From Escherichia phage 1-6bf, in the sequence record OR983334.1: a stretch of 64,000 bases of DNA, one strand, 5' to 3'. The notes under the pieces are model-generated. The model was not told the DNA's origin. It did no database searches and saw only the letters and a program-made list of their open reading frames with translations. Positions 2,052 through 64,000 of this stretch are shown piece after piece (within the stretch, counting starts at the first letter, position 1; every line of letters starts with the position of its first letter). The position numbers and the translations under genes are program-made.

Positions 2052-2941
2052 ATGAAGAGGTAAAAGCTTTAAAGAAAGCTCTTGCAATTAAAATCAAACA
2101 TTTAAATTTCGTCAGAGATGAGTTGGAGGAGCTATCCAACTTATCAGGGTATGAATTACAGAATGAACTTGTAGAGTTTCAAATCAATGTTGATGGCGGT
2201 AGATACGTAGAAACAACTAGAGCGATTTTACCTAAAGTTACTGGTAACAAAACTTCTCCAGTAGATTACTCACATGACCACACGGAGCAATTAGAAATGG
2301 AATCTCAAGGCAATCCAGCACTGACCAATATGGTGAGAGATTCCCACTATAAGCCTTTAGTAGTAATTCTTAATGGGCCTCCGGGTTGTGGTAAAGATAC
2401 GATAGCCAATGCTTGGGTCAATGCCCATTCATACCACCACGGATATTCAACCAAATCCTTCAAGGAGCCAATGTACAGAGTAGCTGCTGCTGCACTAGGA
2501 ATACCTCTAGAAAATTTTCTAGCACGCTATGAAGATCGTGAATGGAAAGAAAAACCTAGACCAGAATGGGGAGGGAAGTCTGTAAGAGATTTGATGATTT
2601 CTACAAGTGAAGACTTCTTAAAACCTATGTTTGGCAACAATCATATGGGGAATCTTGCTGTAAAAAGTATCAAACAAGAAGGGCTAGGTCAGGATGATAT
2701 TGTCGTGTTTACTGACGGAGGTTTTGATGCAGAGGTACGAGAACTAGAAAAGAATTTCCATGTCCAAGTTGTCCAAGTTCTTAGAGATGGTTGCTCTTTT
2801 GATGGAGACTCTCGTTCATATATTGAAGGCGAACAGAGAAAAACATATCTACTGTTTAATGACTCAACCATCGAATCAGCAGTCTCAGATCTAGATTGGA
2901 TTATTGCTCAAGCTCAGGATGATATTTATGGAAGAAGTTAA
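2048..2941 (+). CDS. P-loop kinase, dNMP-kinase-like, with about 110-aa N-terminal extension
   Basis: Walker A GPPGCGKDT resembles the GxxxSGKDT loop of phage dNMP kinases; GGAGAG RBS before ATG 2048. Confidence 0.5.
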
Positions 2942-3746
2942 GCTCCCTGAAGTTGCTATAGTGGATGCTGACGTTCTTCGATATGAAGTGGGTGCTCTTA
3001 CTCAGGAGCATCCCTTTCTTGACACAGGACGTGTTCCAGTTGATTACAATTTCATGATTGAACGACTTCAGTACAAGATAGATACAATCATTGCTCGCTC
3101 AGGTTGCAGTAAGGTTGTGTTCTACTTCAGCGAAGGTGGTAACTTCCGTTTTGATGTTGCTAAGCAGCAAGACTACAAGGCAAACAGACCTCCCGGAGAA
3201 AGACCTTTTCACTGGCAAAACGTTGGTGATTACATTAAAGCCAAGTACGAATACATTGAGGTCTTTGGGAGAGAAGCTGATGATGCACTAGCTGAAAGAC
3301 AACGTAGGGATAAGAATACTATCATCTGTACTAGAGACAAGGATTTGTTGATAACTCCCGGATGGCATTATCGCTGGGCTTGTGGAGAAAGACAGAAAGA
3401 AGTTCCTCCTCACTATGTATCCGATTTAGTCTCATGGCAAAACTTCTTCTATCAAATGTTGATTGGAGATGGTACGGATAATATCCCCGGATGTGGGGAA
3501 CGTAAAGAAGTTATGTGGGGCGGTAAGCTTCAGCTTCGACGTCAAGGAATAGGGAAGAAGGCAGCAGCTAAATTGTTGGCTGGTGTTACAGATAAGTGGA
3601 CCATGTATCATATAGTACGAATGGAATACTATAAGAAGTTCGATACTGAAGATGAAGAGAAGATGCTTGAGAATGCTCGGCTGCTCTTTGTTGGTCAGGC
3701 TCCGGAAGACCTGTTCGACTGGACATGGTTAGATAAATCTTGGTAA
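2928..3746 (+). CDS. 5'-3' exonuclease / flap endonuclease (FEN, RNase H-like)
   Basis: motifs IVDADVLRYE, EADDALA, TRDKDLL, IGDGTDNIPGCG, GIGKKAAAKLL match the FEN/T5 D15/T7 gp6 family. Confidence 0.8.
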   Translation: MEEVKLPEVAIVDADVLRYEVGALTQEHPFLDTGRVPVDYNFMIERLQYKIDTIIARSGCSKVVFYFSEGGNFRFDVAKQQDYKANRPPGERPFHWQNVGDYIKAKYEYIEVFGREADDALAERQRRDKNTIICTRDKDLLITPGWHYRWACGERQKEVPPHYVSDLVSWQNFFYQMLIGDGTDNIPGCGERKEVMWGGKLQLRRQGIGKKAAAKLLAGVTDKWTMYHIVRMEYYKKFDTEDEEKMLENARLLFVGQAPEDLFDWTWLDKSW

Positions 3747-45379: not shown

Positions 45380-45458
45380 GAGGATGTATCTTCCCCGCCT
45401 TCTAAGCGGTCGTTAAAGAAGTAATTGGAGTATGCAGGTTCGAACCCTGTCATCCTCG
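45380..45458 (+). tRNA. tRNA-like element (possible tRNA-Arg UCU; cloverleaf not fully resolved by hand)
   Basis: perfect 7-bp acceptor stem (GAGGATG/CATCCTC), T-arm GCAGG-TTCGAAC-CCTGT, hairpin with loop CTTCTAA; D-arm non-canonical in my fold; no encoded CCA. Confidence 0.35.
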
Positions 45459-49722: not shown

Positions 49723-50922
49723 ATGTTTCCAGTAACATTAGAAGATACTGAAGGTAATGTTTTAACGGTCAACCCTCCTTGTTATGGGTTCCTTCAGCTA
49801 CGCAATTATAACGGGGGCGTTGAGGAAGAGGATGAAGAATATGATGAGTATTACGAACCTAACATGTATGAGGCAACTCATGGATGGAATATGCACGTTC
49901 GAGTGTGGCATGAAGAAGCTAACGTTCGTAGTGCTGATGGGGAAGAATTCCGATTAAGCAGAGAGATGGATATGTGTAAAATCAAGCATATCTGGAACTC
50001 TGGAACTCATATGAAAATGTTAGGTTTTAGACGTTGGCGCGATGAAAAGCATGTAGCTGAAGCTTTAAGTTGGTGTTCGTATGAAGATGAAGACACGCCC
50101 CCTAAGAATAACATTGAACGTTGGAACGACAAAAACCCTGAACATCGAACCACACCTCGTGCTGTACTGGAAGCTATGGAAGCATTTGTGGACAAAGATC
50201 GTCCCTCCTGTTTACGCTGGCACGATAAAGGTTTTATGGGGGTAGCAACTGAGAACATCCCTGCTGATCGTTGTCTGTTCTATTTGATGTTAGATCGAAC
50301 CTTCTATTGTGAAGATGAAGAGAGTCAAGTTGAAACCTTCCTTCATAAATGGTTGGTTGAAGGCTGGACAATCCTTCAGGCTTATGTTTACTCACGAATG
50401 GTTAGTACCTACACTAACCTCTTGGGGGAAACGAAAGCAACTCTGGTTGGTAATGATTGGGATGCTTGTATCTTCCCAGCGTCGCTGTTTACAGTCGGCA
50501 TGGCTGATAAATATGCTGAAGCATTTCAAGTGCCATGGCGTCAACAGTCGTACAGAGATGGCTGTGGTCACTTCCGTGATGAAGATTTTAAGTGGATTCA
50601 TTATGAGAATGATGAAACAGCAGAATTACGAGTTAATAACTCAATGTTCTTGCCAGTGATGCACCCCGATCTAGTAGAGAGTGAATCAGAAATCCTGAAA
50701 TGTGATAACCTTTTGGTTAACTTTGCTCGTCGTGTCTCTAAAGATGAAAGAACAGCAAATAAATTAGTATATGGCATTCGTGCTGAGACTAAAGACCTGT
50801 TCAACATCTATAACATTGTTCAGCGATTTAGTAGTGGAACTCTGGACCAAAGTTCGGAGTATTCAGTGATTCCATCCTCTGAGTGGGATGGTGTTATGAG
50901 CGGATTATTTTTAGGAAAATAA
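49723..50922 (+). CDS. hypothetical protein (operon with amidoligase genes)
   Basis: 399-aa ORF, no motif recognised. Confidence 0.5.
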   Translation: MFPVTLEDTEGNVLTVNPPCYGFLQLRNYNGGVEEEDEEYDEYYEPNMYEATHGWNMHVRVWHEEANVRSADGEEFRLSREMDMCKIKHIWNSGTHMKMLGFRRWRDEKHVAEALSWCSYEDEDTPPKNNIERWNDKNPEHRTTPRAVLEAMEAFVDKDRPSCLRWHDKGFMGVATENIPADRCLFYLMLDRTFYCEDEESQVETFLHKWLVEGWTILQAYVYSRMVSTYTNLLGETKATLVGNDWDACIFPASLFTVGMADKYAEAFQVPWRQQSYRDGCGHFRDEDFKWIHYENDETAELRVNNSMFLPVMHPDLVESESEILKCDNLLVNFARRVSKDERTANKLVYGIRAETKDLFNIYNIVQRFSSGTLDQSSEYSVIPSSEWDGVMSGLFLGK

Positions 50923-50932
50923 AAGGTTAGTT

Positions 50933-51904
50933 ATGTCAATCTCCACAACGATCGTACCTCTTAACCTTCAACAGGATTTAGGGGAACAGAAGTTCTTAGG
51001 TCGTGGGTGTTTCGGTATCCACAACTACATGCAAGGCCAGTGTGTAAATGACATTAATGGTGAAGTTATCACGGAAGAAGGGCGCTATCGTCGCTTCAAC
51101 CGTGATATCAACTTGCAACTGGAGATGTTGAATTACTGGACTCACTCTTTTCATGGTCATGTTACATCTGATATTGAAAAGAATTTGGTTGAAACAGCAG
51201 ACATTATGAACTCCATGTCTTGCTATCGTGACGTATTTACGATCACTTCAGCGAATAGTGTTGCTGTCAACCTTCGTGAGCATCCAGCAGATCAGATCTT
51301 CACAGGACTTATGCTCTTTCGTAGTATTCTGGAAGGGCAATATCGTGGAATGGATTTCCTAGCAGAAGGAATTGAAGACAGGGAAGAGTGGCTGAAGCGT
51401 AAACGCATCGGCATCGCTCTAGTGTTAGCTGGGTTGGGTCGTGACTTCTTCGGTGGATGGTCTCAACGAGGAAGAGCTAATGGGAGTAGCGAAAGCACCT
51501 CTATTGTTATTAACAACAATATGTCAGCAGCAGCATTCCTTCCTTTGGTTGTAGACTCTGATGAATACACGAAGCAAGTATGGGTTCAAAACCCCTTCGG
51601 TGTTGGCGACAACGAGAATGGTTATGTTCGTAACCATAACCAAGATGCCTTACGAAGATTTGCTCGTGCTAAAGATCAAGACCCGGACGAGTATGAAACA
51701 ATGTCAGAGTGGTTAAGACTCTGGTCCAACTGTTATGGTCACAAACGTGAATCAATAGACGACAAGTTGGGAAACATTACAGTACAAAACTTTACATCCC
51801 GACTGATTCAAAGAACTGGAGCAGATTCCGGTCTTACTCTTGAAGAAGTTGGTAACACAATCTCATCTCTCTTTTCTGAACTAGTGGAGTATTACAATGA
51901 CTAA
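50933..51904 (+). CDS. hypothetical protein (operon with amidoligase genes)
   Basis: 323-aa ORF. Confidence 0.5.
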   Translation: MSISTTIVPLNLQQDLGEQKFLGRGCFGIHNYMQGQCVNDINGEVITEEGRYRRFNRDINLQLEMLNYWTHSFHGHVTSDIEKNLVETADIMNSMSCYRDVFTITSANSVAVNLREHPADQIFTGLMLFRSILEGQYRGMDFLAEGIEDREEWLKRKRIGIALVLAGLGRDFFGGWSQRGRANGSSESTSIVINNNMSAAAFLPLVVDSDEYTKQVWVQNPFGVGDNENGYVRNHNQDALRRFARAKDQDPDEYETMSEWLRLWSNCYGHKRESIDDKLGNITVQNFTSRLIQRTGADSGLTLEEVGNTISSLFSELVEYYND

Positions 51905-52703
51905 GCGCAAATTCCTCATCGGCTCTGACCCTGAAATGTTCGTTCGTACTAGCAATGGTATCATCACTTCTGTAGCCGGTTTATTAGGCTGCTCTAAGGA
52001 CGATAAAATCGCTCTGGCTAAGGATGTTCGTCTCCAAGAGGACAATGTACTGGCTGAGTTTGATATTGACCCACAGAGCGGTTTTGAAGCGTTTAACGAT
52101 AACATGCAACGTGGTATTGATCTCACCAATAATGTCCTGAACAAACTGGACATGGAAACAGCTCCTGGTGTTAGCTCTCACATCTTCACTGAAGAAGAGA
52201 TGAAGACCTTTAATGAATCAGCGTTCATCTTCGGGTGCACTCCTGATTTCAACGCCTTCACTGGTCAGAAAAACCCATCCCCGACTTCTCAGAATAAGGG
52301 ACTTCGTACTGCCGGTGGTCACGTACATCTTGGCGTAGTTGGTGCTTTGGATATCACTCTGCAAACTCAGATGATGCTTGGTGTGCTGTGTGACTACTTC
52401 CTATCCCTCCCAGCAGTAATTATGGACAAAGATACTCGCCGTAAAGAACTCTACGGTAAAGCATCTGCAATCCGTTATAAAGACTATGGTATTGAATACC
52501 GTTCTCTGTCTAACTTCTGGATTAGTGATCGTGAAAACCGTAAGTTTGTTTACGATCAGGTTGACAAGGTTGTTCAGCAATGTGATATGTCCACTCTGAT
52601 GGCATTGCACTCTCGCCTTCCGATTGAGAAGCTTCATGAAATCATTAACGGGAACAATGTTAAAGAAGCTGACCAGCAGATCAAACTCCTTCAGGTAGCA
52701 TAA
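51897..52703 (+). CDS. possible divergent amidoligase-like protein
   Basis: FLIGSDPEMFV and GGHVHLG motifs loosely resemble carboxylate-amine ligase signatures; ATGA overlap. Confidence 0.3.
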   Translation: MTKRKFLIGSDPEMFVRTSNGIITSVAGLLGCSKDDKIALAKDVRLQEDNVLAEFDIDPQSGFEAFNDNMQRGIDLTNNVLNKLDMETAPGVSSHIFTEEEMKTFNESAFIFGCTPDFNAFTGQKNPSPTSQNKGLRTAGGHVHLGVVGALDITLQTQMMLGVLCDYFLSLPAVIMDKDTRRKELYGKASAIRYKDYGIEYRSLSNFWISDRENRKFVYDQVDKVVQQCDMSTLMALHSRLPIEKLHEIINGNNVKEADQQIKLLQVA

Positions 52704-52712
52704 GAGGTTATC

Positions 52713-53330
52713 GTGAGCTTAGTAGCTGATTTTTCTCATTACTATAATGGTACATGGATTGCTAAACGAGCAGGTAATATCAACCTTCCATGTTTTGTGA
52801 TTGGTGTTGAGCAGAGCGGTAACTTCCGCAGTGATGACTTCTCTCACGAAGCAGAGCAGGCTCTGTACTTTGTTGTAGAGCAGTGGTACAAGAACGAGCA
52901 AGGGCATCTTCGAAACACTACGATGAATATCCCAGTGTTCGACCCAACCCTGATTCTTGAATCACCTGACGTTGGTTATCTGTTCCATAACGGTAACACT
53001 GTAAGCTGGACTCATATTAACCCTGTTCGCCAGAGAGCAAAGGGCTTAATGGGTAATAAGATTCGAAATGCTCCGGGTGTTGGTCGTGCTATCTCCGGAG
53101 AGATGGTTTACAGTCTGTTCAATCCTGAATTCGAAGGATTGGTTACTCGTTATATTTACATCAACCCTACAGATGGTAAGGTGCATTATAAAGGTGCACT
53201 GGTAGGACAAGTAGATCTGGAAGCACCTCGTGACTCTTACGGTCAGCAACCGATGCGACTTCTGGAACATTTTCATCACATTTCTGAAAACCTTAGCAAT
53301 TACAATATTACGTTGGTGGATTCGTTATGA
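52713..53330 (+). CDS. hypothetical protein
   Basis: 205 aa, GTG start with GAGG RBS. Confidence 0.45.
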   Translation: MSLVADFSHYYNGTWIAKRAGNINLPCFVIGVEQSGNFRSDDFSHEAEQALYFVVEQWYKNEQGHLRNTTMNIPVFDPTLILESPDVGYLFHNGNTVSWTHINPVRQRAKGLMGNKIRNAPGVGRAISGEMVYSLFNPEFEGLVTRYIYINPTDGKVHYKGALVGQVDLEAPRDSYGQQPMRLLEHFHHISENLSNYNITLVDSL

Positions 53331-54430
53331 CAACTGTAGCGCAAACTTTTGGATATCGAGAAGGTCGTTTAACTGAGGCGCATAGTTCAATTGCACTTCA
53401 GTGCGGTGTCGGTATTGAACTTGAACTCGAAGGTTCCGATCATATCGAAGCAGATATGTGGGATTGTACAGAGGATGGTTCCCTGCGTAATGGTTGTGAA
53501 ATGGTATGTTCACGACCTTACAACGGACAGGAGTTGTTAGACGCTATCAACAACCTGAGTGAAGCAGTAGCTGAATCGCACGCCGAGGGGACTTGGCGTT
53601 GCTCTACTCACGTTCATATGGATATGAGGGATGCTGATAGTAATATCCTCAAGAAAACCATTCTCGCTTGGACCTTCTACGAAAAGATGTTGTTCAAGTG
53701 CTCAGGCTACCATCGTTACCGTAGCAATTTCTGCCCTGCGTTTGCAGTGGTACAAGCACAGGTAATGAATGCCTCTGACGCATTTAACTACGATGGTGAA
53801 GAGTTCTTCAACCGTCTGGTTCGTTCATGGGATAAGTATACATCCCTGAACCTTCTGCCACTTGCCCAATACGGTTCGATTGAGTTCCGTATCAGCGAGC
53901 CTAAGTGGAAACGTGGTCAACTTCTCAATCTGGTTAACCGCTTCTTGATGCTGAAGAAGCTGGCTTTAGATAACGCAGATATGAGCAACGATCAGTTTGT
54001 TGAGCATTTAAATACTGTACGATTTGCCCCAATGCTTCCTTACCTTCCTCTGGATTACAATCTGGATGAATCGGATTTGCATTCAGGTTATTGTATGGCC
54101 CGTGATGTTTTGTATTGTCGTTCTCATGAAGTAGAACAGTCTGGTCGTATTCGTTTACGTCGAACCAACTCCAACGGAGATGTTCTTGTTGACTTGCGTC
54201 TTATGTCAGACTTCTATGGATTCCTTGGTTATGTCCGAGGGAACGCTAACAACTTGTATCAAGAGATTTTGGTTATGCTTCGTACAGCAGACCTATCTCA
54301 AGTAAGACACGCTCCAGAACAACGTATCCGTGCTATTTTTGACTTACTACGTGAGTCAGGTCACAGTGATAGCAATATCACAGGGTACATTCCAGACCAT
54401 CTGGAAAATCAGTTAGAACAAGCGCTGTAA
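53327..54430 (+). CDS. amidoligase-like (glutamine-synthetase-like carboxylate-amine ligase)
   Basis: GVGIELELEG and CSTHVHMD motifs resemble the phage/bacterial amidoligase family; ATGA overlap. Confidence 0.45.
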   Translation: MTTVAQTFGYREGRLTEAHSSIALQCGVGIELELEGSDHIEADMWDCTEDGSLRNGCEMVCSRPYNGQELLDAINNLSEAVAESHAEGTWRCSTHVHMDMRDADSNILKKTILAWTFYEKMLFKCSGYHRYRSNFCPAFAVVQAQVMNASDAFNYDGEEFFNRLVRSWDKYTSLNLLPLAQYGSIEFRISEPKWKRGQLLNLVNRFLMLKKLALDNADMSNDQFVEHLNTVRFAPMLPYLPLDYNLDESDLHSGYCMARDVLYCRSHEVEQSGRIRLRRTNSNGDVLVDLRLMSDFYGFLGYVRGNANNLYQEILVMLRTADLSQVRHAPEQRIRAIFDLLRESGHSDSNITGYIPDHLENQLEQAL

Positions 54431-54509
54431 TCAATGGGTGCCTCTGACAAAGGGGCACAATTTAAAGGTTAATTAGATGAAAGGGTTTACCCTTCAGGTG
54501 GATTAGAAA

Positions 54510-56540
54510 ATTTGTGGCATCGTATTAGCTGGCGGTAATCTGTCAAGCACTGATTTAGACGTATTCAACCAACTCTTTTATGCTGGAGTATTCCGAGGAC
54601 AACATTCCTCCGGTATCTTTGGTCAGCGTAAAAGCACTAAGGAAGTCTTCACTTATAAAGAAGCTCTTCCTTCTTTCGCATTCATCCTACAAGATGAGTA
54701 CAAGAAGCACACCACTGGTGAAACAGCTTACACTGTAGCACCTTCATGGATTGTTGGTCACAGTCGTCATGCAACGAAAGGTGCAGTTAACGCCAAGAAC
54801 GCCCATCCTTTCCAACATGGTAACATCACTCTGGTTCATAATGGAACCTTGATGGACCAAGATCTGTTACCTGACAGCAAAAGCTTCGAGGTAGACAGCG
54901 AGAACATCTGCCACTCTATTAACACTATCGGTGCAGCAGAGACTATTCAAAAGCTGGATGGTGCTTTCACCTTAATCTGGCATGATGCTTCTGATAACCG
55001 CCTTCATATCATTCGTAACGAAGAGCGTCCTTTCCACCTCGCACGTTGTAACAGAGATTGGTTTGGTGCTTCTGAAGAAGATATGTTGATGTGGATTCTG
55101 AAGCGTTCTAAGTCTCATAAGAACCGTATTGACGAGCATTTTGAATGTAAAGTTGGTACAGAGTATATCTTTGATATGTCAAACAACGGCATGACTCTGG
55201 TTGAAGAGGTCGCCCACGAGCTTCCGGTTTTTACGGTAGCCAATCGTTGGGGCAGTTATTACTCGAACAACTACAGCCAAAGCAACTATCAAAGTTCCTC
55301 AAAAAGCAGTACAAGCAATCCCTACGACACGAAGCCGGGAGTGACAGCGGCAGATGTTCGTCGAAGAAACGCAGTGGTAAGTCAAAACAAAATCGCAAGT
55401 GATCGAAACATTGATATTCGCCGCGATATGACTGTGGAAATCACTCCGCATGAGTTTGTTCCTTATGCAACTGCTGGTGCTGTTCCTTCTCGTGGTAAGA
55501 TGATTGGTTATATCTACGATGAGAAATCTCAAGAGTATATCGAAGGTGATGTCCATAACGTAGATATTAAGGCTTATCAGGATGCCCTGAAAGACCCTAA
55601 AATTGTTTACCGTGGGACAGTATCCTGTATCTCCGAAGTTAATGCTATGGTTCGCTTAGTGATCACAGCAGGTCGTTTTGTTGACCCATCTCTGGAGAAA
55701 AAGGAGCCTGAGTCTACTACTGCTGACTTTGATGATGATATCCCTTTTGACATGAATGATAGTTTCGTCAACAAGAATGGCGTTACTATCACTCGTAAAT
55801 TCTGGGAAGCACATTCTCATGGTGATTGTGGTGGTTGTGACAAACACATTGATTGGAAGGATGCACCTAAAGCAGTCTTCGCATATCAGTGCTACTGGCA
55901 TCCTGAATGTCTGGAAGGTTTGACTAAACCTAAAGAGGAAGAAGAGGAGGAGACTCCTATTGGTGTTTGTGAAATCTGTGGTGAAGTTAAAACAGAGAAT
56001 GAGTTCGATGATGAACTTAGTCGTCTTCGCGGTGAAGATATCTGTAAAGCCTGCGCTGTAGAGGTAAAGAAGAAAGTATCTAATGCTACGATCAAAGATG
56101 GTTATGTATGGATTAAAGCAACAGATACAACAAACGCCCGTCGTCCTGAGTTTGCTTTACGTGTAACTGAAGATATGATTGGTCGTATGACTGTATTACC
56201 TTCCTCAGCGAAACAGACAGGCATCACTCTGGAGGATGTTGTTGATGCTTATGTTGAGAAACGTAGCAACAGTATTTTTGCAATCTCAACTAAGCCAAAA
56301 AAGGAGGAACCTGCTGAGAAAGCAGGTGTGTTTCCTGAATCACGAACAACTCTCCGCAAAACTGTTGTCAGCTTCGACGGAAACCGAAGCACTGACTTCA
56401 CCAAAGCCATGTGGTCAACCCTTGGATACTGCTCAGAGTGTTTTAAGCAGATTCCGTGGCGCGATGCTGAAAGTTGTACGCTTGGTTCTATGAATCAAGT
56501 TTATTGTAATTCTCCTAAATGTTCATTGAATAGAGGTTAA
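54510..56540 (+). CDS. class-II glutamine amidotransferase (Ntn) domain protein with C-terminal Cys-rich zinc-ribbon region; non-canonical start
   Basis: CGIVLAGG, GHSRHATKG, NAHPF, HNG motifs in order; catalytic Cys preceded only by AAA-ATT after in-frame TAG; AGGTGGA SD 7 nt upstream of ATT. Confidence 0.7.
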   Translation: MCGIVLAGGNLSSTDLDVFNQLFYAGVFRGQHSSGIFGQRKSTKEVFTYKEALPSFAFILQDEYKKHTTGETAYTVAPSWIVGHSRHATKGAVNAKNAHPFQHGNITLVHNGTLMDQDLLPDSKSFEVDSENICHSINTIGAAETIQKLDGAFTLIWHDASDNRLHIIRNEERPFHLARCNRDWFGASEEDMLMWILKRSKSHKNRIDEHFECKVGTEYIFDMSNNGMTLVEEVAHELPVFTVANRWGSYYSNNYSQSNYQSSSKSSTSNPYDTKPGVTAADVRRRNAVVSQNKIASDRNIDIRRDMTVEITPHEFVPYATAGAVPSRGKMIGYIYDEKSQEYIEGDVHNVDIKAYQDALKDPKIVYRGTVSCISEVNAMVRLVITAGRFVDPSLEKKEPESTTADFDDDIPFDMNDSFVNKNGVTITRKFWEAHSHGDCGGCDKHIDWKDAPKAVFAYQCYWHPECLEGLTKPKEEEEEETPIGVCEICGEVKTENEFDDELSRLRGEDICKACAVEVKKKVSNATIKDGYVWIKATDTTNARRPEFALRVTEDMIGRMTVLPSSAKQTGITLEDVVDAYVEKRSNSIFAISTKPKKEEPAEKAGVFPESRTTLRKTVVSFDGNRSTDFTKAMWSTLGYCSECFKQIPWRDAESCTLGSMNQVYCNSPKCSLNRG

Positions 56541-56542
56541 GT

Positions 56543-56776
56543 ATGGAAATTCGTAAGATGATGCTGGATAACGTTGTAACTACTCGACGTATCCCGATGA
56601 CGAGCACAGGATGTGATAACCTTCGTGCAATCCAAAAGTGGATGCAAGCTGGTATTGGTCAAGTACTTGAAACACAGGTTGAGGTTCCTTTCCCAACGGT
56701 GATCAACAACGTGCTTGCTGATTATGTAAAAATCAAAGGCATTAAGGTAGAACCTCATGTCAAATCTGGTTCCTAA
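56543..56776 (+). CDS. small protein within modification operon
   Basis: 77-aa ORF. Confidence 0.4.
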   Translation: MEIRKMMLDNVVTTRRIPMTSTGCDNLRAIQKWMQAGIGQVLETQVEVPFPTVINNVLADYVKIKGIKVEPHVKSGS

Positions 56777-56981
56777 GAAACCAAAGATCACTCTCCTACA
56801 GTATTATATGGGAGTTCATATCGAATTAGTAACGGAGCAGCGAAAGCTGTATCCGTTCGCTTTCGGTCTGATTGATGCACCATCCGATGAAGTAGAGAAC
56901 GATGCGTTCAACGACTACTTCGAAATTGAAGCTCAGATTCAAAAAACTCGTAACGAAATTCTTAAACTTAAAGGTATCTAA
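56757..56981 (+). CDS. small protein within modification operon
   Basis: 74-aa ORF overlapping neighbours. Confidence 0.4.
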   Translation: MSNLVPKKPKITLLQYYMGVHIELVTEQRKLYPFAFGLIDAPSDEVENDAFNDYFEIEAQIQKTRNEILKLKGI

Positions 56982-56983
56982 CA

Positions 56984-58180
56984 ATGACTACTCGTATCCG
57001 TGTTCTTCCTTATGGCCCTTCCGATTCAGTTCGTGAACTTACTTCTGCAATTAATACTAAGATTCAGGAACTCCGCTTAAATGCTAACGTAATGTCTTTG
57101 GTATCAGAAGGCTCTCGTTATCGTTCTCGAGCTGGTGATATTGTTGTAAACTATGGCAACCGCCGTTATGATGCTTCTTTCTTTGGTGGTGCAACCGTAT
57201 TGAACCCTGTTGAAGCTCTGAACCGAGCGGCTAACAAGATTGCAGCGTTCAACGCATTGCGTTTGGCTGAAGTTAAGACTGTTGAATACACTATCGATCA
57301 CGAATTAGCTCTGAACTGGAACCGAACCGAAATTGTTTATGAACGTGCAACCTTAACTGGTCACTCTGGTGAAGGTATCACCGTTCGTCTTCCGGGAGAA
57401 GGTGTTGCAAGTGCTCCTCTGTATACGAAAGGTATTCAAGGCCCACGTCGTGAATGGCGTGTTCATGTGTTTGAAGGTGTTATCACTTACGTTCAGAAGA
57501 AGATTCGTCGTAATGGATATCGTGAACTGGAAAGCTACCGTGAAGATATTCGTAACCATCACACTGGTTGGGTTTATTCTAACGCATTCACTGAAGCTCC
57601 TCCTGATCAAGTTCTGATTCAAGCTCACAAAGCTGTATCTGCTCTGGGCTTAAACTTCGGTGCTGTTGATCTGATTAGTAAAGGGAATAACGCTTGGGTT
57701 CTGGAAGTAAATACAGCTCCGGGACTGACTGGTACAACTCTGGAGACTTACACTCACAATATCGTTGAGTTTGTTAAGAGCTTCTCTGGTGTTGAACCTG
57801 ACTATCGTGTTGCTTACCAACTGCCTGTTGAAGAAGTGGAAGAAGAATTTGCTGAATCAGCAGATGATGAGAACTTTGCATTAACAGCTGAGCCAGTTGC
57901 TGAAGAATCTTCGGAACCTGTTCCTGAAACGATGCAAGTTGAAGAGCAAGGGTTAGAGATCACCCCGATCACCCGTCGTAATCTGCGTCGTGGTTATTAC
58001 ATCGCTAACATCAAGCATCCTGAAAACGGTTCAACTGTAGCAAGTAACGTAATTGTTTTCTTCTGCGGTCGTAACTTCTACCGCTCTGGCTGGAATGCTC
58101 CAATTAGTGATCGTCAGCTTGGTCGTGTGTTGCAGATTAATAGCATTACCCTGAATGATGGCACTGTTGTAAACTACTAA
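56984..58180 (+). CDS. ATP-grasp ligase (RimK-like)
   Basis: GHSGEGI ... EWRVHVFEG ... GAVDLI ... VLEVNTAPGLTG ATP-grasp signatures; acidic C-terminal segment. Confidence 0.75.
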   Translation: MTTRIRVLPYGPSDSVRELTSAINTKIQELRLNANVMSLVSEGSRYRSRAGDIVVNYGNRRYDASFFGGATVLNPVEALNRAANKIAAFNALRLAEVKTVEYTIDHELALNWNRTEIVYERATLTGHSGEGITVRLPGEGVASAPLYTKGIQGPRREWRVHVFEGVITYVQKKIRRNGYRELESYREDIRNHHTGWVYSNAFTEAPPDQVLIQAHKAVSALGLNFGAVDLISKGNNAWVLEVNTAPGLTGTTLETYTHNIVEFVKSFSGVEPDYRVAYQLPVEEVEEEFAESADDENFALTAEPVAEESSEPVPETMQVEEQGLEITPITRRNLRRGYYIANIKHPENGSTVASNVIVFFCGRNFYRSGWNAPISDRQLGRVLQINSITLNDGTVVNY

Positions 58181-58186
58181 GGATAT

Positions 58187-58435
58187 ATGGATATGTTTTC
58201 ATTGGAAGATCTAGTACAAAATGGAATGATGGAACAAAAAGAGCCTCTGACTGTAGGCTCTCGTAAAGAGTTGCGTAAGTTGTGTGAAGAATGGGGTATT
58301 ACTAATCAGCGAATGATTGGTAATCAGTTCTCTGCAATTGTAACTTTCCTGAAACGTGGTGATAAGTATTCTATGGAATGTGTAGAACGTATCATCACTG
58401 AAGCACAACAAGACAAGGGAGTGACCTATCTGTGA
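58187..58435 (+). CDS. hypothetical protein
   Basis: 82-aa ORF. Confidence 0.45.
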   Translation: MDMFSLEDLVQNGMMEQKEPLTVGSRKELRKLCEEWGITNQRMIGNQFSAIVTFLKRGDKYSMECVERIITEAQQDKGVTYL

Positions 58436-58617
58436 ATAAGTATAAAGTTCTGTTTAAAGATACCAATACCGCTGGTGAAATGCGAGCTATGGACCTCGAT
58501 GCTGATATGTTTAACTTCACTGATGGCAAAGTGGCCTTCTTTCAAGGAAGTGAAGCTATTGCAGTGTTTGAAAGTGCAGCGATCTGTGGCGTAATCAAAA
58601 TCTTTATTACAGAGTAA
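58432..58617 (+). CDS. hypothetical protein
   Basis: 61-aa ORF with ATGA overlap. Confidence 0.4.
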   Translation: MNKYKVLFKDTNTAGEMRAMDLDADMFNFTDGKVAFFQGSEAIAVFESAAICGVIKIFITE

Positions 58618-58686
58618 TCTGCTTTAGCCTCTTCGAAAGAGGAGGCTAGTTCGGATAAACTAAACAAACCAACAAAGGTATAGATA

Positions 58687-59106
58687 ATGTCAGAAGTAAT
58701 TTACGTAGCAACTTATGGTTCTCTTCGTCGTGGTCAAGCTAACTATTTAGTTAATGACCGAGCTGGTGCTAAGTCAATTGGTGAAGGTTGGACTGAAGAC
58801 AACTTCGATCTGTTCCGTTATGGTGGTTCCTACTTCCCAAGCATCTCTCTCACACACAGCAATAATAATAAGCCTGTTCGTGTAGAAGTGTTTGCTACTG
58901 ACAAAGCAGGTCTGGAAGGTCCGTATGACCGTCTGGAAGGTTACAACAAACATAGCCCTGAAGACAGCTTCTATCAGCGTACTCAGATTGCTGTTAAGAT
59001 GGACTCAGGTGAAACTGTTATCGCTTGGATTTATCACATCGACAAAGAACAAGACGTTCTGGTTGAATCTGGCGACTGGTCAGAGTATCTGAAAAGTGAA
59101 TCTTGA
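58687..59106 (+). CDS. gamma-glutamyl cyclotransferase-like (GGCT/AIG2 fold)
   Basis: N-terminal YVATYGSLRRGQAN and C-terminal IAWIYHID resemble the GGCT family YGSL-type motif. Confidence 0.5.
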   Translation: MSEVIYVATYGSLRRGQANYLVNDRAGAKSIGEGWTEDNFDLFRYGGSYFPSISLTHSNNNKPVRVEVFATDKAGLEGPYDRLEGYNKHSPEDSFYQRTQIAVKMDSGETVIAWIYHIDKEQDVLVESGDWSEYLKSES

Positions 59107-59299
59107 GAAAAGGCAGGCTCTTCGGAGACTTGAAGCCAAGTATTTAATGCTACGGTGCAAAATCAACCGACATGAACGTTTCGTTGAAGCTGCACAAACC
59201 AAAAACTTTGAATCATCAGTGGAGATGTTCAAGACACAACTTTCTTTTTATAGGAAAGAACAGGAACAAGTGTGGGATGAAATTCGTTCGTTCTACTAA
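59096..59299 (+). CDS. hypothetical protein
   Basis: 67-aa ORF. Confidence 0.4.
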   Translation: MNLEKRQALRRLEAKYLMLRCKINRHERFVEAAQTKNFESSVEMFKTQLSFYRKEQEQVWDEIRSFY

Positions 59300-59325
59300 G
59301 CTCAAGGATTCCAAGGAGGAAGAGC

Positions 59326-61116
59326 ATGTCAAAGATCATTTTGGGAGACACAGGTTGTAAGGAATGTATCTCTCATGGTCGTGATAAAACCCACAACCAC
59401 ATGATTCTCTTCCGTAACGAAGAGACAGGTGAGGAGTGGGGAAGTTGTAACCGTTGTGGGAATTACGAAGTGTTCGAAAAGGGCACTACACCTACTCCAA
59501 ACGAGAGAAAAGAGTTATCCCCTGAAGAGTTGAGAGAAGTCTTAGATGATTGCTTAGAGCTTCCTCAGGGAGAGCTTACTCGACGTTTAATCCCCAAAGC
59601 TGTATCAGAGCGTTTTGAGTGTCGCATCGGTCTAAGCCAGACTGATGGGCAGACTCCAGACAGCTACTTCTTTCCTCGTGAACGTGATGGAAACATTGTT
59701 GGTTACGAGGTTAAGCTGCTAGATAGTAAGAAGTTTTATTATGTCGGCAGTGTGAAAGAAGCAGATTTATTTGGTATGGCACAAGCTCAACGTGGAGATG
59801 TGTACAACAAGAAGCTCTTCATTTTTGAAGACCCGCTATCTTGTATGTCTGGTTTCCATGTCCTCACAGCTTTTACAAATGCAACAAACATTAAACCAGC
59901 ATGTGTTTCTTTACCGTTCGGTGCAGGTTCAATCTCTTCTGTGTTGTCTCGTAACCGAGACTTCGTAAATGGTTTTGAGGAGGTTGTGCTCTGCATGGAC
60001 AACGATGATGCAGGTGAGATAGCTTTAACAAAAGGTCGTTCTTTATTCCCTCATGTTAAGTTTGCTCGTATTCCTAAAGGAACTTTCCCATACAACGGTG
60101 TGGAGAAAGAGATTAAGGATGCGAATGACATGCTTCTGTCTGGTCGTGGTCAAGAGTTATTCAACATTCTCAAGTACTCAGCAAAGCGGGAATCTCCTGC
60201 TGGAGCTGTAACAATCTTTGATTGCCTTGATGATGCTCTGAAGAAAGCGGAGTGGGGTATCCCATATCCGTGGAAGACTCTGAATGAGATGACCTTCGGT
60301 ATTCGATGGGGAGAGGTGGTAGCAATTGGTGGTGGAGTAGGGAGTGGTAAAACACTCATTGCTCACGAGCTGGTTGCCCATCTGTGCTTAGAGCATGGTT
60401 TTAATGGAGGTGGCTTCTTCTTGGAAGAGAAGGTAGGCATGTCTGTTAAGAACATTGCTGGTAAGTCAGCATCAATTCCTTTCCACCGACCTGATGTTGA
60501 ATATGATGAGGAGGATTTGCGTAATGAAGCACTTCGTTATGCAGACAAATTCTTCTTGTATGACAACTTCGGACAGAACGAATGGGAAGACATTAAACAG
60601 TGTATCCGTTTCTGGGTAGTTGAAAACCAGTGTAAGTTCATCATCCTTGATAACATTACCGCTCTGGTGTCTCATTTAACACCTTCAGAGATTAACACTG
60701 AAATCAGTAAGATTGCTTCCGAGCTTGCTGGTATGTGTAAAGAATTAGACTTTACCGCTTTCGTGCTATCTCACCTTAATGCTCCGGCAGGTGGTGCTCC
60801 TCATGAAGAAGGTGGACAGGTACGTGAAGTACAGTTCACTGGCTCTCGTTCTCTTATGCGTTGGTGTCAGTGTATCATTGGCTTTGAGCGTGACAAGCAA
60901 GCTGATGGCTTAGCTAAGAACATCTCAGTCATTCGATTGCTGAAAGAGCGTAACTATGGTCAGACTGGTGTCTGTTATACTAAGTATATCAGTGAAACCG
61001 GTAGGCTTGTAGAAAGGGAAGACTTTGAAGTCGATGAAGATAATCCATTCGTTTTAACTAATGGAGAGGATGCAGCTTCTCTCGTCAACCAAGCAGATGG
61101 AGCTTCACCGTGGTAA
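59326..61116 (+). CDS. DNA primase-helicase (T7 gp4-like)
   Basis: N-terminal zinc ribbon (CKEC ... CNRCG), TOPRIM-like CMDNDDAGE, DnaB-type Walker [10 protein letters not shown] and Walker [10 protein letters not shown]. Confidence 0.85.
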
Positions 61117-61667
61117 AGAAAAAGAAGAAAGTGTTTGCATTCGATATCGAGAGTAATGCACTGTACGATGACATAACTAAAGTATGGTGTATTTATATCT
61201 TCGATGTTGAAACTGGTGAAAGGTGGGGCTATCGGCCTCACCAAATCGAAGACGGGATTCGTAAACTGACAGAAGCAGATGTGCTCGTGGGTCATAATAT
61301 TATTGACTTCGACTTACCTGCTCTGAAGAAGATGTATCCCTCTTTGATTAAATATAATTTTAACGTCTTTGACACTTTATGTCTTAGTCGATATCTTAAA
61401 CCTGACCGTATTGGTGACAGTCCTGAGTATCCGAAAGGCGACCCTAGACGTGGCCCAAGGGGTCATGGCTTGAAGCAGTGGGGTGAGTTCTTAGGAGAAC
61501 TTAAGGGCGATTATGGTGAGCAAGAGGAAGCATGGGATGCTTTCACTGAAGATATGTTTACTTATTGTGAACAGGACGTTAACTTAACTGTTAAGGTTTA
61601 TCTTTTCTTGTGTGAAATCACAGGATTTGACCCTTACGACCCACCTTCATTATATTGGAAAATGTAA
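61110..61667 (+). CDS. stand-alone 3'-5' exonuclease (DnaQ / family-A polymerase exo domain-like)
   Basis: Exo I FDIESNAL, Exo [15 protein letters not shown], Exo III YCEQDV closely follow the T7 DNA polymerase exo domain; ORF ends with TAA with no polymerase domain attached. Confidence 0.75.
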
Positions 61668-61668
61668 A

Positions 61669-63018
61669 ATGATTGTTATCCCGATTAACCGAATTGAAGA
61701 TAAGGTTGCTCAACAACCTGATATCACTGTTGGTCGTCACTTCATTGAACAGCTGATTAACAACAACTTGATTCCAGACTGTATTTGTCCTATCATCACT
61801 GGTGGGGCTATTCGTGATGCTGTGCTTAATAACACAGCTCCGCATGACATTGATATCTTTATTGTCAGAGGACAGGCCCCAAGAACTCGAAATACTTTCA
61901 TCCGTCATGAGCAGTGGCAAGATCTCGGACGAGAAGTTGAAAGTAACGTTAAAGAGTGGCTTGAGTCTCAAGATATTGAATATGCATCACTTCTTGCTGA
62001 AGCTACAAACGAATCCTATGCTGGGGGTTCTCAATTAACATTCACTGATATTATTGAGTTTCAGTGGAATGGGGTTCGTATCCAATTCATGTTTAATTAT
62101 CCTACTTCTATCGAAGAGGTATTGGATAACTTTCCTATGATGTGCCGTGGTGCGATGACTCTTGACAACTTATTCATGACTTCTCACGGATACTTGGCTA
62201 TGACTGCCCCTTGTCCAGTGGTTGTTTCTAGTCGTGAAATCAGGTATGTTCACAAGAAGTGGCCTAATTCACAAGTGTTGAGATTTTCCTCTCCAGCAGT
62301 TGCACATCAATACATGGCCCAAACTCGATATCTTCCCACACCTCAGCCAGTTAGTCACCTAGTCAATGGATTAGGTCAGGTTTCTCTTATTGAAGATACA
62401 ACAAGTGCTCTATATTGTGTTAACCGAGACATGAGTCTATTCTTTGGAATCCCTTATGAAGAGATTCAGATTATGTCTAGTCTTCACGGTTCCGGTCAGA
62501 TTCATGCGTATTGGTCTGAAGGGTTGACAAATTTAACGACTAATACAGGAGGAGATCTACTTGGTCGAGAAGAAGAGCCTAGTCGTCATAACGCAATCGA
62601 AGGGGTGTTTGTAGCCCCTACAAGACGCCGAGCAAACGAAGCACGAAATATAAGCTCTACTCGTAGAACATCTTTTGAAGAAGCTCTTGGTATTACAAGT
62701 GATTCTATGGAGAGATGGATGGCTAGTCCTTCTCGTGGTCGACCAAACGGCTTCAATGTTAGTGCACGTCAGTTCTCTGGTCAGGGTTTCGCTGTTGGTG
62801 ATATCAACGCTCCTTCTCGTGTTATCTGGACTGATGAAGGCGTGGCTCAAGATGTGGTAGGTAGTCTCTCCGATCTTGATATTCCTTCTCATGACGAACT
62901 CGCTGAGACTGTCAGCCGCAGTCTCGCTGATCGGTTTGTTGCCAACAATCCTGAAGTATTAGAGCCTCAGGTTGGTGGAGAACTGGACCACTTAATAAAT
63001 TCACAAAACATTCGCTAA
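61669..63018 (+). CDS. Pol-beta-superfamily nucleotidyltransferase (CCA-adding / poly(A) polymerase-like head motif)
   Basis: GGAIRD ... HDIDIF matches the GG-x-VRD ... D-x-D signature of tRNA nucleotidyltransferases. Confidence 0.45.
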   Translation: MIVIPINRIEDKVAQQPDITVGRHFIEQLINNNLIPDCICPIITGGAIRDAVLNNTAPHDIDIFIVRGQAPRTRNTFIRHEQWQDLGREVESNVKEWLESQDIEYASLLAEATNESYAGGSQLTFTDIIEFQWNGVRIQFMFNYPTSIEEVLDNFPMMCRGAMTLDNLFMTSHGYLAMTAPCPVVVSSREIRYVHKKWPNSQVLRFSSPAVAHQYMAQTRYLPTPQPVSHLVNGLGQVSLIEDTTSALYCVNRDMSLFFGIPYEEIQIMSSLHGSGQIHAYWSEGLTNLTTNTGGDLLGREEEPSRHNAIEGVFVAPTRRRANEARNISSTRRTSFEEALGITSDSMERWMASPSRGRPNGFNVSARQFSGQGFAVGDINAPSRVIWTDEGVAQDVVGSLSDLDIPSHDELAETVSRSLADRFVANNPEVLEPQVGGELDHLINSQNIR

Positions 63019-63030
63019 TAAGGAAAAAGA

Positions 63031-63564
63031 ATGAGTTTACTAGGAAGTATTGAACTGCACGATGTAATTGACAATGGTTATCTGGATGCGGAGCATAAGT
63101 ATGTTAACGCTGCTAGTGTGGATATCCGTATTGGTGATACTATCCTTGTTGAAGAACAGGCTGATGGCATCGTTGATATTGATGCGAAAGAAAATCTTCA
63201 GTGGAAGGAAGTAAAGATTCCTGAAGAGGGTTTGGTTATCACTCCGGGTCAGTTCTTCTTGGCTCACTCTATGGAGGAGTTTAATCTTCCAGATAACATC
63301 TCAAGTCTGTTTGTTCTGCGTTCATCTATGGCTCGTTGTGGTTTGAACCACCTCCATGCTGGTTGGGCTGATGCAGGATTTAATAGTAGTAAGCTGACAT
63401 TTGAATTCCACAACGTAACCAAGCACCATAGCTTACGAGTTCGTGCTGGTATGCGTGTTGGTCAAATGGTTATGTTCGAGCACTCTCATGCAGGGGAACA
63501 CTCCTATGCAGTGAAGGGTCGTTATAATAACTCTGAAGGTGTAGTTTCATCTAAAGGTGTGTAA
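63031..63564 (+). CDS. dCTP deaminase family protein
   Basis: VDIRIGD, ITPGQFFLAHS, LRSSMARCGL, AGWADAGFN, LRVRAGMRVGQMVMFE align with the dCTP deaminase/dUTPase fold motifs. Confidence 0.8.
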   Translation: MSLLGSIELHDVIDNGYLDAEHKYVNAASVDIRIGDTILVEEQADGIVDIDAKENLQWKEVKIPEEGLVITPGQFFLAHSMEEFNLPDNISSLFVLRSSMARCGLNHLHAGWADAGFNSSKLTFEFHNVTKHHSLRVRAGMRVGQMVMFEHSHAGEHSYAVKGRYNNSEGVVSSKGV

Positions 63565-63762
63565 ATGAAAAAGTGGATTGTTCGTGTACATGATAACACG
63601 ACTGGAGAGTTAGTAGCTGTAGATTTTGTTAAGACTCGAGAGCACGCACGTAGGGTCAAAAATCAATACAAGTCTACTTTTAGACTTAACAAGGTTACAT
63701 TAGGAAGAGCTATCGTGAGTAGTGAAGGTGCTTTTATGGCAAATAGTAAGGTTTATTACTAA
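63565..63762 (+). CDS. hypothetical protein
   Basis: 65-aa ORF. Confidence 0.4.
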   Translation: MKKWIVRVHDNTTGELVAVDFVKTREHARRVKNQYKSTFRLNKVTLGRAIVSSEGAFMANSKVYY

Positions 63763-63971
63763 TGAGACCGATCACCATGAGACAGTTTTGGTTAGCGAAG
63801 ATTAAGTGGGCATCAGGCGGGATGACTATGACTGCACTGCCCACCCGTCAACAAGCTCGAGAGTTTAAAAAGTCTATGTTCAATGTAGACTTAACTAAGA
63901 ATATTAGCATTCACAAGGCCAGAGAATATTCCTCTGGTCGTGTTTATATCAGCGGAAAGGTACATTACTAA
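63762..63971 (+). CDS. hypothetical protein
   Basis: 69-aa ORF with ATGA-type overlap. Confidence 0.4.
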   Translation: MRPITMRQFWLAKIKWASGGMTMTALPTRQQAREFKKSMFNVDLTKNISIHKAREYSSGRVYISGKVHY

Positions 63972-64000
63972 TGAAAAAGATGTGGGCTGTTCGTGTTGTT

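Follow-up and report, generated by a model that had tools for sequence, protein, structure and literature searches.

Here we analyse a replication locus of Escherichia phage 1-6bf within a stretch of 64,000 nucleotides of its sequence record OR983334.1 (hereafter the window, to which all coordinates refer unless otherwise indicated). The locus comprises four genes in one co-oriented, tightly packed block on the + strand: a T7 gp4-type DNA primase/helicase (59326–61116; PHROG 239, E 1.8e-175; Pfam DnaB_C), which is the first gene of the block, a stand-alone 3'–5' proofreading exonuclease subunit of 185 residues (61110–61667), a nucleotidyltransferase (NTase; core 61669–62538, tail 62539–63018) and a dCTP deaminase (Dcd; 63031–63564). 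An earlier reading of the window, made from its letters alone (the sequence-only reading), had listed a polymerase-type exonuclease, a CCA-adding-like enzyme and a dCTP deaminase, and all three open reading frames (ORFs) are present within 61110–63564, where they belong to the replication and nucleotide module of the phage. Over 59000–64000, nucleotide identity to some 60 Escherichia/Shigella phages of the Kuravirus group (SU10, phiEco32, CHD5UKE1 and BASEL Bas90/91) is 93–95%, and to SU10, CHD5UKE1 and Bas91 it is 95%. On this nucleotide identity the window is that of a Kuravirus-type (SU10/phiEco32-like) coliphage of the subfamily Gordonclarkvirinae, and its relatives are prolate C3 podophages with genomes of about 77 kb. 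Synteny of this block, from primase/helicase through exonuclease and NTase to dCTP deaminase, extends to five divergent lineages from metagenomes.

The reading that we favour for the block, with a probability of roughly 0.5 as a whole, has the exonuclease as the proofreading subunit of a split polymerase, the NTase as a counter-defence enzyme resembling Gad2 (a phage protein involved in escape from the Gabija defence), and the deaminase as a supplier of dTTP. The split polymerase and the deaminase, like the deoxynucleoside monophosphate (dNMP) kinase encoded elsewhere in the window, are ordinary or already published. The useful outcome is a correction of annotation: the gene described as CCA-adding-like resembles a remote and rapidly diversifying relative of Gad2.

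The exonuclease, its polymerase and the dCTP deaminase

The exonuclease gene (61110–61667, +) starts with a GTG codon that overlaps the primase/helicase stop and is preceded by GGAG 7 nt upstream. The sequence-only reading had recognized in it a family-A proofreading domain of T7 type, and this is borne out. The product scores 35.4 bits against Pfam DNA_pol_A_exo1 (PF01612; gathering score 23.6), matches PHROGs named 'DNA polymerase exonuclease subunit' and has residues 3–178 of T7 DNA polymerase as its best Protein Data Bank (PDB) match (E 2e-12). It is of DEDDy type, with all three motifs present: Exo I (D12/E14), Exo II (N63..D68) and Exo III (Y152/D156). The catalytic residues align to D5/E7, D65 and D174-type positions of T7 polymerase, the counterpart of the tyrosine (Y170) being uncertain, and D12, E14, D68, Y152 and D156 are invariant across four divergent lineages. 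Identity between lineages is 57–59%, and the ratio of non-synonymous to synonymous substitution rates (dN/dS), calculated against SU10 and Bas91, is 0.021. The corresponding value for the primase/helicase is 0.015, with 77–78% protein identity in divergent lineages.

The sequence-only reading had left two possibilities: either the catalytic subunit is encoded outside the window, or the exonuclease works alone. The first is supported by the close relatives, in which a family-A polymerase gene was found downstream. In SU10, the only DNA_pol_A gene is gp051, which encodes 615 residues and lies 8.6 kb (23 genes) downstream of the exonuclease; DNA_pol_A is its sole domain, and it aligns to T7 polymerase residues ~289–698. 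The gene is also found 8.6–9 kb downstream in Bas91 (Bas91_0047) and in 1-6af, the closest relative of the window, with a product 99% identical to SU10 gp051 in the latter. No tblastn match to this subunit was found within the 64-kb window; since the gene is kept in the close relatives, it must sit in the ~13 kb of the genome outside the window. In the 1-6af record (OR983333.1; L011 2243–3964), the polymerase ORF is annotated with 573 residues and its product parts from SU10 gp051 beyond residue 564, immediately ahead of the conserved HDE in motif C; this points to a frameshift or sequencing error in the record, or to an interruption there.

The 185-residue protein would thus be a proofreading subunit acting in trans within a T7-type family-A polymerase that is divided into separate genes, with the thumb, palm and fingers subunit made from the gene ~9 kb downstream, past the window end. 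By analogy with T7, the exonuclease very probably docks onto this subunit as the fused domain does in T7 polymerase. Its dN/dS of 0.021, like that of core replisome genes, argues for a trans-acting proofreading subunit over a free-standing nuclease. We regard it as highly improbable that the exonuclease acts by itself, for instance in degrading host DNA or as an anti-defence nuclease. The distance of ~9 kb and ~23 genes to the polymerase gene would fit such an activity, given that the published S-SBP1-type split leaves exonuclease and polymerase genes side by side (PMC10201439), as would translational coupling of the exonuclease to the NTase rather than to the polymerase. However, the polymerase subunit is devoid of an exonuclease domain in all lineages, the exonuclease corresponds precisely to the N-terminal domain of T7 polymerase, all DEDDy residues are invariant, and family-A polymerases are reported to require the exonuclease domain structurally (PMC10201439). 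Such a split has been described before throughout this phage group: polymerase, 5'–3' exonuclease and 3'–5' exonuclease are encoded separately in all Kuravirus-like phages (PMC9965538), and fission between exonuclease and polymerase is known in T7-like PolAs (PMC10201439).

A fused polymerase broken by a frameshift was also considered, and was rejected because no polymerase-like sequence lies 3' of the exonuclease in any frame. Repair of such a frameshift is impossible because the conserved NTase gene begins 1 nt past the exonuclease stop (TAA-A-ATG). The same spacing of 1 nt is found in lineages L004 and L015, with 4 nt in L007 and 21 nt in L013 (6629–6651), which suggests translational coupling of exonuclease and NTase in most lineages.

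At the other end of the block, the assignment of 63031–63564 (+) as a dCTP deaminase holds. The protein scores 106.8 bits against the equivalog model TIGR02274 (cut-off 92.8) and matches PF22769 (3.6e-34), and its catalytic residues S98, R102 and E125 align to S111, R115 and E138 of E. coli Dcd. A ThyX gene lies downstream in relatives, and Dcd probably makes dUTP or dUMP for this phage ThyX, raising the supply of dTTP for a genome of 42% GC. The dcd gene of 1-6af (L011 11412–11966, 184 residues) shows 56% global identity to that of the window between flanking genes that are 99–100% identical; the record probably has a local frameshift here or carries another allele.

The nucleotidyltransferase and its CCA-adding annotation

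The longest ORF of the NTase starts with GTG at 61612, and homologs, PHROG 12715 and RefSeq support a start at ATG 61669, yielding a protein of 449 residues. As the sequence-only reading had it, this gene is in a different frame from the exonuclease and carries a GGAIRD … DIDIF signature (residues 45–50, nt 61801–61818; and residues 60–64, nt 61846–61860, containing D60 and D62). Further landmarks are an acidic residue at 127, Q139, FP156 and R189..Y193..K197. The protein divides into a conserved core (residues 1–290; 61669–62538, +) of the Pol-beta superfamily, with a class II-like head that is Gad2-like at the profile level, and a hypervariable, probably disordered C-terminal tail (residues 291–449; 62539–63018, +), as alignment, composition and dN/dS indicate. 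An exhaustive HMMER search of 1.84e9 representatives retrieved only 31 clusters, which share just the N-terminal ~210 residues and include no canonical CCA enzyme. In an alignment of 26 family members from this search (A3), G45, G46, R49, D50, D60, D62, F64, Y117, I128 and Q139 are invariant (26/26), position 127 is always D or E, and W97, L108, M141, P156, Y193 and K197 are nearly so. Because the GG pair, D60, D62 and the acidic residue 127 are all kept, we judge the two-metal active site to be intact and predict a catalytically competent Pol-beta-fold enzyme.

An AlphaFold model of residues 1–300 using A3 reached a predicted local distance difference test (pLDDT) of 88.7 and a predicted template modelling score (pTM) of 0.87. 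The diversity of A3 was needed: a full-length prediction with a shallow, Kuravirus-only alignment gave a pLDDT of 34.8 and was discarded. The core has an extra helical region at residues 150–290. The tail contains no K, C or Y; it has indels, Arg-rich stretches and an acidic final 80 residues, and is net acidic overall. Over its last ~15–25 residues (62970–63018 versus L001 12970–13040), close Kuraviruses carry one of two unrelated sequences, …EPQVGGELDHLINSQNIR or …EPQTRTVRFADEAGRGISFDxETNN. A frameshift origin of these alternative C termini was rejected, as they are unrelated replacement cassettes.

The sequence-only reading had taken this protein for a tRNA nucleotidyltransferase that could repair tRNA 3' ends. 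Motif A of class II CCA enzymes, GGxxRD(x)nDxD, is indeed present in all 26 members, the model has the head-domain fold of class II CCA/poly(A) enzymes, and the RefSeq note ('nucleotidyltransferase domain of class II CCA-adding enzyme') agrees with the usual database annotation. However, the hidden Markov model (HMM) searches do not support the assignment. Against PF01743 the NTase scores 20.3–21.1 bits, below the gathering score of 23, and only 4 of the 26 family members match that model at E<=0.01; an NCBIfam scan gave no match, the CCA and PcnB models reaching 11–15 bits against cut-offs of 290–700. In class II enzymes, motif B (RRD) selects ribose and motif D (EDxxR) serves as the amino-acid template for C and A. 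Neither RRD nor [DE]DxxR is conserved at any aligned position of A3. Nor does any of the 26 members carry a neck, body or tail Pfam domain (PF12627 PolyA_pol_RNAbd and others), whereas PF12627 is carried by nearly all listed Cca homologs.

Structural and profile comparisons are likewise confined to the head. About 145–165 of the 300 modelled residues align structurally to CCA enzymes, all within the head domain. With hhalign, A3 reaches 10% and 4% against single E. coli Cca and PcnB sequences, respectively, and 34% against a Cca family profile even with forced extension, confident over motif A alone. In searches against PDB sequences, A3 matched only motif A of a CCA enzyme, and a Kuravirus-only profile matched nothing meaningful. 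A gene annotated as 'class II CCA-adding-like nucleotidyltransferase' in ~100 coliphage genomes therefore fails the defining tests of that family.

The presumed substrate fares no better. A tRNA-like element without an encoded CCA does exist in the window, at 45380–45458 (+), as a marginal match to Rfam RF00005 (29.7 bits; gathering score 29) resembling a degenerate tRNA-Arg(UCU). It retains an intact acceptor stem, T-arm and anticodon loop, has 4 nt in place of the D-arm and carries a 20-nt insertion in the variable region; it may represent either a tRNA in decay or a variant of unusual form that still functions. The proposed fit between this element and a CCA-adding NTase did not stand. ARAGORN calls no tRNA in the window, the element is found in few phages only (1-6af, FH3 and Bas93/94), and the tRNA-Arg(TCT) at the syntenic site of SU10 is normal and encodes its CCA, yet SU10 keeps the NTase, as does Bas91. 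On these grounds a link between tRNA and NTase was rejected. In Bas93 and Bas91 a gene for an HNH/homing endonuclease lies directly against the tRNA site, and the Bas91 annotation contains no RNA ligase or polynucleotide kinase. The host, moreover, already has its own Cca, and a maturation enzyme would not be expected to show a dN/dS some tenfold that of the housekeeping genes beside it. We thus consider a genuine minimal tRNA nucleotidyltransferase, adding or repairing the 3' CCA on tRNAs of the phage or the host, such as the element at 45380–45458, to be very improbable.

Evolutionary rate, probable relationship to Gad2 and candidate roles

The NTase evolves very differently from the genes around it. 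Between the window and divergent lineages, protein identity is 77–78% for the primase/helicase, 57–59% for the exonuclease and 77–79% for Dcd; for the NTase core it is 27–31%, and the tail cannot be aligned. Among close Kuraviruses, whose neighbouring genes are at least 99% identical, the NTase is 85–89% identical (core 95–97%; tail 65–77%, with indels). Against SU10 and Bas91, dN/dS is 0.015–0.03 for the neighbours and 0.21–0.23 for the NTase (core 0.13, tail 0.27–0.33). By tblastn the gene is present in 97 coliphage records with a bimodal distribution, 69 at >=80% identity and 28 at <60% (those listed being 31–38%). On these comparisons, the pattern is the signature of a gene involved in host interaction or conflict, not of a tRNA-maturation enzyme.

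A relationship to Gad2 was indicated by precomputed matches to PF26128 in 30 of 44 Kuravirus NTase homologs; the match of one homolog that was looked up is named 'Gad2'. Gad2, a phage protein of ~400 residues and a predicted NTase, is required for SPbetaL7 to escape Gabija, and its expression is toxic (Yirmiya et al., bioRxiv 10.1101/2023.05.01.538930). Using a profile of 10 authentic Gad2 sequences from the supplement of that work, hhalign related the NTase family to Gad2 at 83.9% (E 7.7e-6; 121 columns; residues 41–205) and at 91.7% (E 7.7e-7) in the reverse direction. The comparison of NTase with Cca gave 34%, that of Gad2 with Cca 0.7%, and reversed-sequence controls <=3.3%. Similarly, in unfiltered hmmsearch runs the Gad2 HMM matched 24 of 26 NTase family proteins at 10–17 bits and the NTase-family HMM matched 9 of 10 Gad2 proteins at 14–17 bits, over a background of <=8.5 bits for Cca proteins and all window ORFs. 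Beyond GG and DxD, the two families have in common the invariant Q139 of 'IQxM', 'F[DP]xxxC' and 'R..Y..K'. At the profile level the Kuravirus NTase is likely to be homologous to Gad2, as a remote relative rather than a curated member.

From the Gad2-like profile and the very rapid evolution, rich in indels, of a gene whose neighbours hardly vary, we infer a counter-defence enzyme. Its head would have retained the architecture of class II CCA/poly(A) enzymes while the nucleotide-selecting and tRNA-binding parts were lost; it would use a nucleoside triphosphate (NTP) to nucleotidylate a target or to form a nucleotide product that neutralises a host defence of nuclease type, and the variable tail would tune specificity for the target or a partner. 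An anti-defence role of any kind is a tentative assignment, which we place a little short of even odds, and action against Gabija in particular is doubtful.

Several points weigh against this interpretation. Identity between the NTase and Gad2 is <20%, and single-sequence HMM E-values are ~0.1–1 at database scale. The Gad2 profile rests on 10 sequences only, the Gad2 Pfam match is flagged as faint, and local Pfam and NCBIfam recognise not even authentic Gad2, so that no curated cut-off was applied. The Kuravirus NTases keep a GGxxRD of class II type where Gad2 has GGxxTS; the best structural matches of the model are heads of CCA enzymes and poly(A) polymerases, and there is no Gad2 structure in the PDB to compare. 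Fast evolution could stem from relaxed constraint or recombination instead, and the synonymous rate (dS) is raised too in the tail. Finally, the mechanism of Gad2 is still without explanation in the 2026 literature, and a literature search for Kuravirus together with Gabija returned no paper and no experiment linking them.

A different use for the same genes is suggested by the BASEL work, which names exactly the dcd and NTase locus as a possible DNA-modification pathway; the Gordonclarkvirinae are unusually resistant to restriction–modification (RM), with no known mechanism (PMC11990801). The two enzymes would together modify the DNA covalently, for example with deoxyuridine (dU) or another modified base, and so shield the genome from restriction. 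Adjacency of dcd and NTase in every lineage examined and an amidoligase/ATP-grasp/glutamine amidotransferase (GATase) cluster just upstream are in keeping with this proposal. Nevertheless, the phage ThyX is conserved, so that dUMP would be converted to dTMP and not retained, and Dcd is under strong purifying selection whereas the NTase is diversifying, which is unexpected for steps of one pathway; together, the conserved ThyX and the unlike selection argue against a simple dU-DNA pathway. Furthermore, dU-DNA requires no NTase, the Bas91 annotation shows no Ugi, dUTPase inhibitor or dTMPase, and the genomes are routinely sequenced. We therefore consider this pathway improbable.

Foldseek searches with the NTase model returned small, head-only podophage NTases (E 1e-8 to 1e-4), and two such proteins, encoded beside primase/helicase genes, are toxic to E. 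coli and P. putida cells. This raises the possibility of a toxin for host takeover, which would tail host RNAs in the manner of poly(A) polymerase or block tRNA acceptor ends in the manner of MenT, and to which the Arg-rich stretches in the tail might contribute. But the toxicity data derive from other families, SPbetaL7 Gad2 is toxic too and toxicity does not discriminate between a toxin and an anti-defence protein, the tail is net acidic overall, and the window NTase and two divergent homologs had no match at E<=0.1 to PADLOC defence models, including MenT and AbiEii. A takeover toxin is accordingly a rather unlikely identity for this protein.

If the counter-defence interpretation is extended, the Kuravirus NTase would be the founder of a divergent Gad2-like branch and the factor behind the marked resistance of Gordonclarkvirinae to host defences that target DNA (Gabija and/or restriction), with nucleotidyl transfer as its mode of action and a hypervariable tail shaped by an arms race with host targets. 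Although we think this extension unlikely, it would make the mechanism of Gad2 testable, since BASEL Bas86–94 grow on engineered E. coli K-12. The gene is thus a testable candidate for two questions, the mechanism of Gad2 and the RM resistance of Gordonclarkvirinae. Should the link to Gad2 fail, it remains an NTase confined to its lineage that evolves at an unusual rate.

Neighbouring genes and comparison with known systems

Other genes of the window complete this picture. The P-loop kinase of the sequence-only reading (2048–2941, +) is a dNMP kinase by PHROG 139 (E 3.4e-56), with weak P-loop matches only in Pfam and NCBIfam. Its ORF (2042–2941, +) encodes 297–299 residues where the syntenic Bas91 gene is annotated with 176, and its first ~100 residues, a possible N-terminal extension, are matched by a PHROG of their own, 26149. 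Remodelling of the deoxynucleoside triphosphate pool by this kinase and the deaminase, as proposed earlier, is right but ordinary: Dcd, ThyX, dNMP kinase and thioredoxin together form a common phage set for dTTP supply. A separately encoded exonuclease at 2904–3746 (+; PHROG 107 'exonuclease', E 4.8e-65) is syntenic with Bas91_0026, a gene described in the Kuravirus literature as the 5'–3' exonuclease subunit (PMC9965538). With the polarity taken from that literature, this makes it the putative third piece of a split Pol I-like set.

Upstream of the replication genes lies a conserved cluster at ~50200–59106 (+; L001 1–9107) encoding an amidoligase, a COOH–NH2 ligase, a class II glutamine amidotransferase, an ATP-grasp protein and a gamma-glutamyl cyclotransferase. 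Its content suggests synthesis of a peptide-like metabolite or modification. The RimK-like ATP-grasp gene (56984–58180, +; PHROG 'ribosomal protein S6 glutaminyl transferase') is a second local hot spot. Its product is 86–87% identical to those of SU10 and Bas91, with a dN/dS of 0.18–0.20; its dS of 0.42–0.51 is above that of flanking genes (~0.1–0.16), which suggests mosaic or recombinant ancestry.

Among known systems, the split polymerase is closest to those of S-SBP1-like cyanophages (PMC10201439) and the Kuravirus group (PMC9965538), in which the exonuclease and polymerase domains of a T7-type PolA are likewise encoded in separate genes. As in these split enzymes, the exonuclease keeps all catalytic residues and the polymerase carries the DNA_pol_A domain only. 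In the S-SBP1-like phages, however, the two genes are adjacent and arose by frameshift fission, whereas here they are ~9 kb and ~23 genes apart and the exonuclease is followed by the NTase. The deaminase is 28% identical to E. coli Dcd over 164 residues, with the catalytic Ser, Arg and Glu conserved; it differs in being phage-encoded and slightly shorter.

The NTase has three points of comparison. Class II tRNA nucleotidyltransferases and poly(A) polymerase I (E. coli Cca, PcnB and the A. aeolicus A-adding enzyme) possess motif B, motif D and neck, body and tail domains that are absent from the Kuravirus protein. The head-only podophage NTases (Autographiviridae and others: fHe-Kpn01 Gp22, PP47 gp28, LKD16 and Emajogi gp22) have a CCA-like head, adjoin genes for primase/helicase and DNA polymerase, and go under the annotation 'tRNA nucleotidyltransferase', some being now labelled Gad2 family. 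These proteins are, however, only 167–250 residues long and have strong HHpred matches to CCA enzymes, whereas the extra helices at 150–290 and the long variable tail set the Kuravirus NTase apart, and these podophage proteins are not recovered with it in sequence searches. Gad2 itself is, like the Kuravirus NTase, a phage-restricted protein of ~280–450 residues with an N-terminal Pol-beta NTase core and a variable C-terminal region, located in early or replication regions of lytic phages. The C-terminal halves of the two are unrelated and the TS of the Gad2 GGxxTS motif is replaced by RD, at <20% identity; the cores share GG, DxD, the Q of 'IQxM', F[DP]xxxC and R..Y..K, and are related at 84–92% in hhalign.

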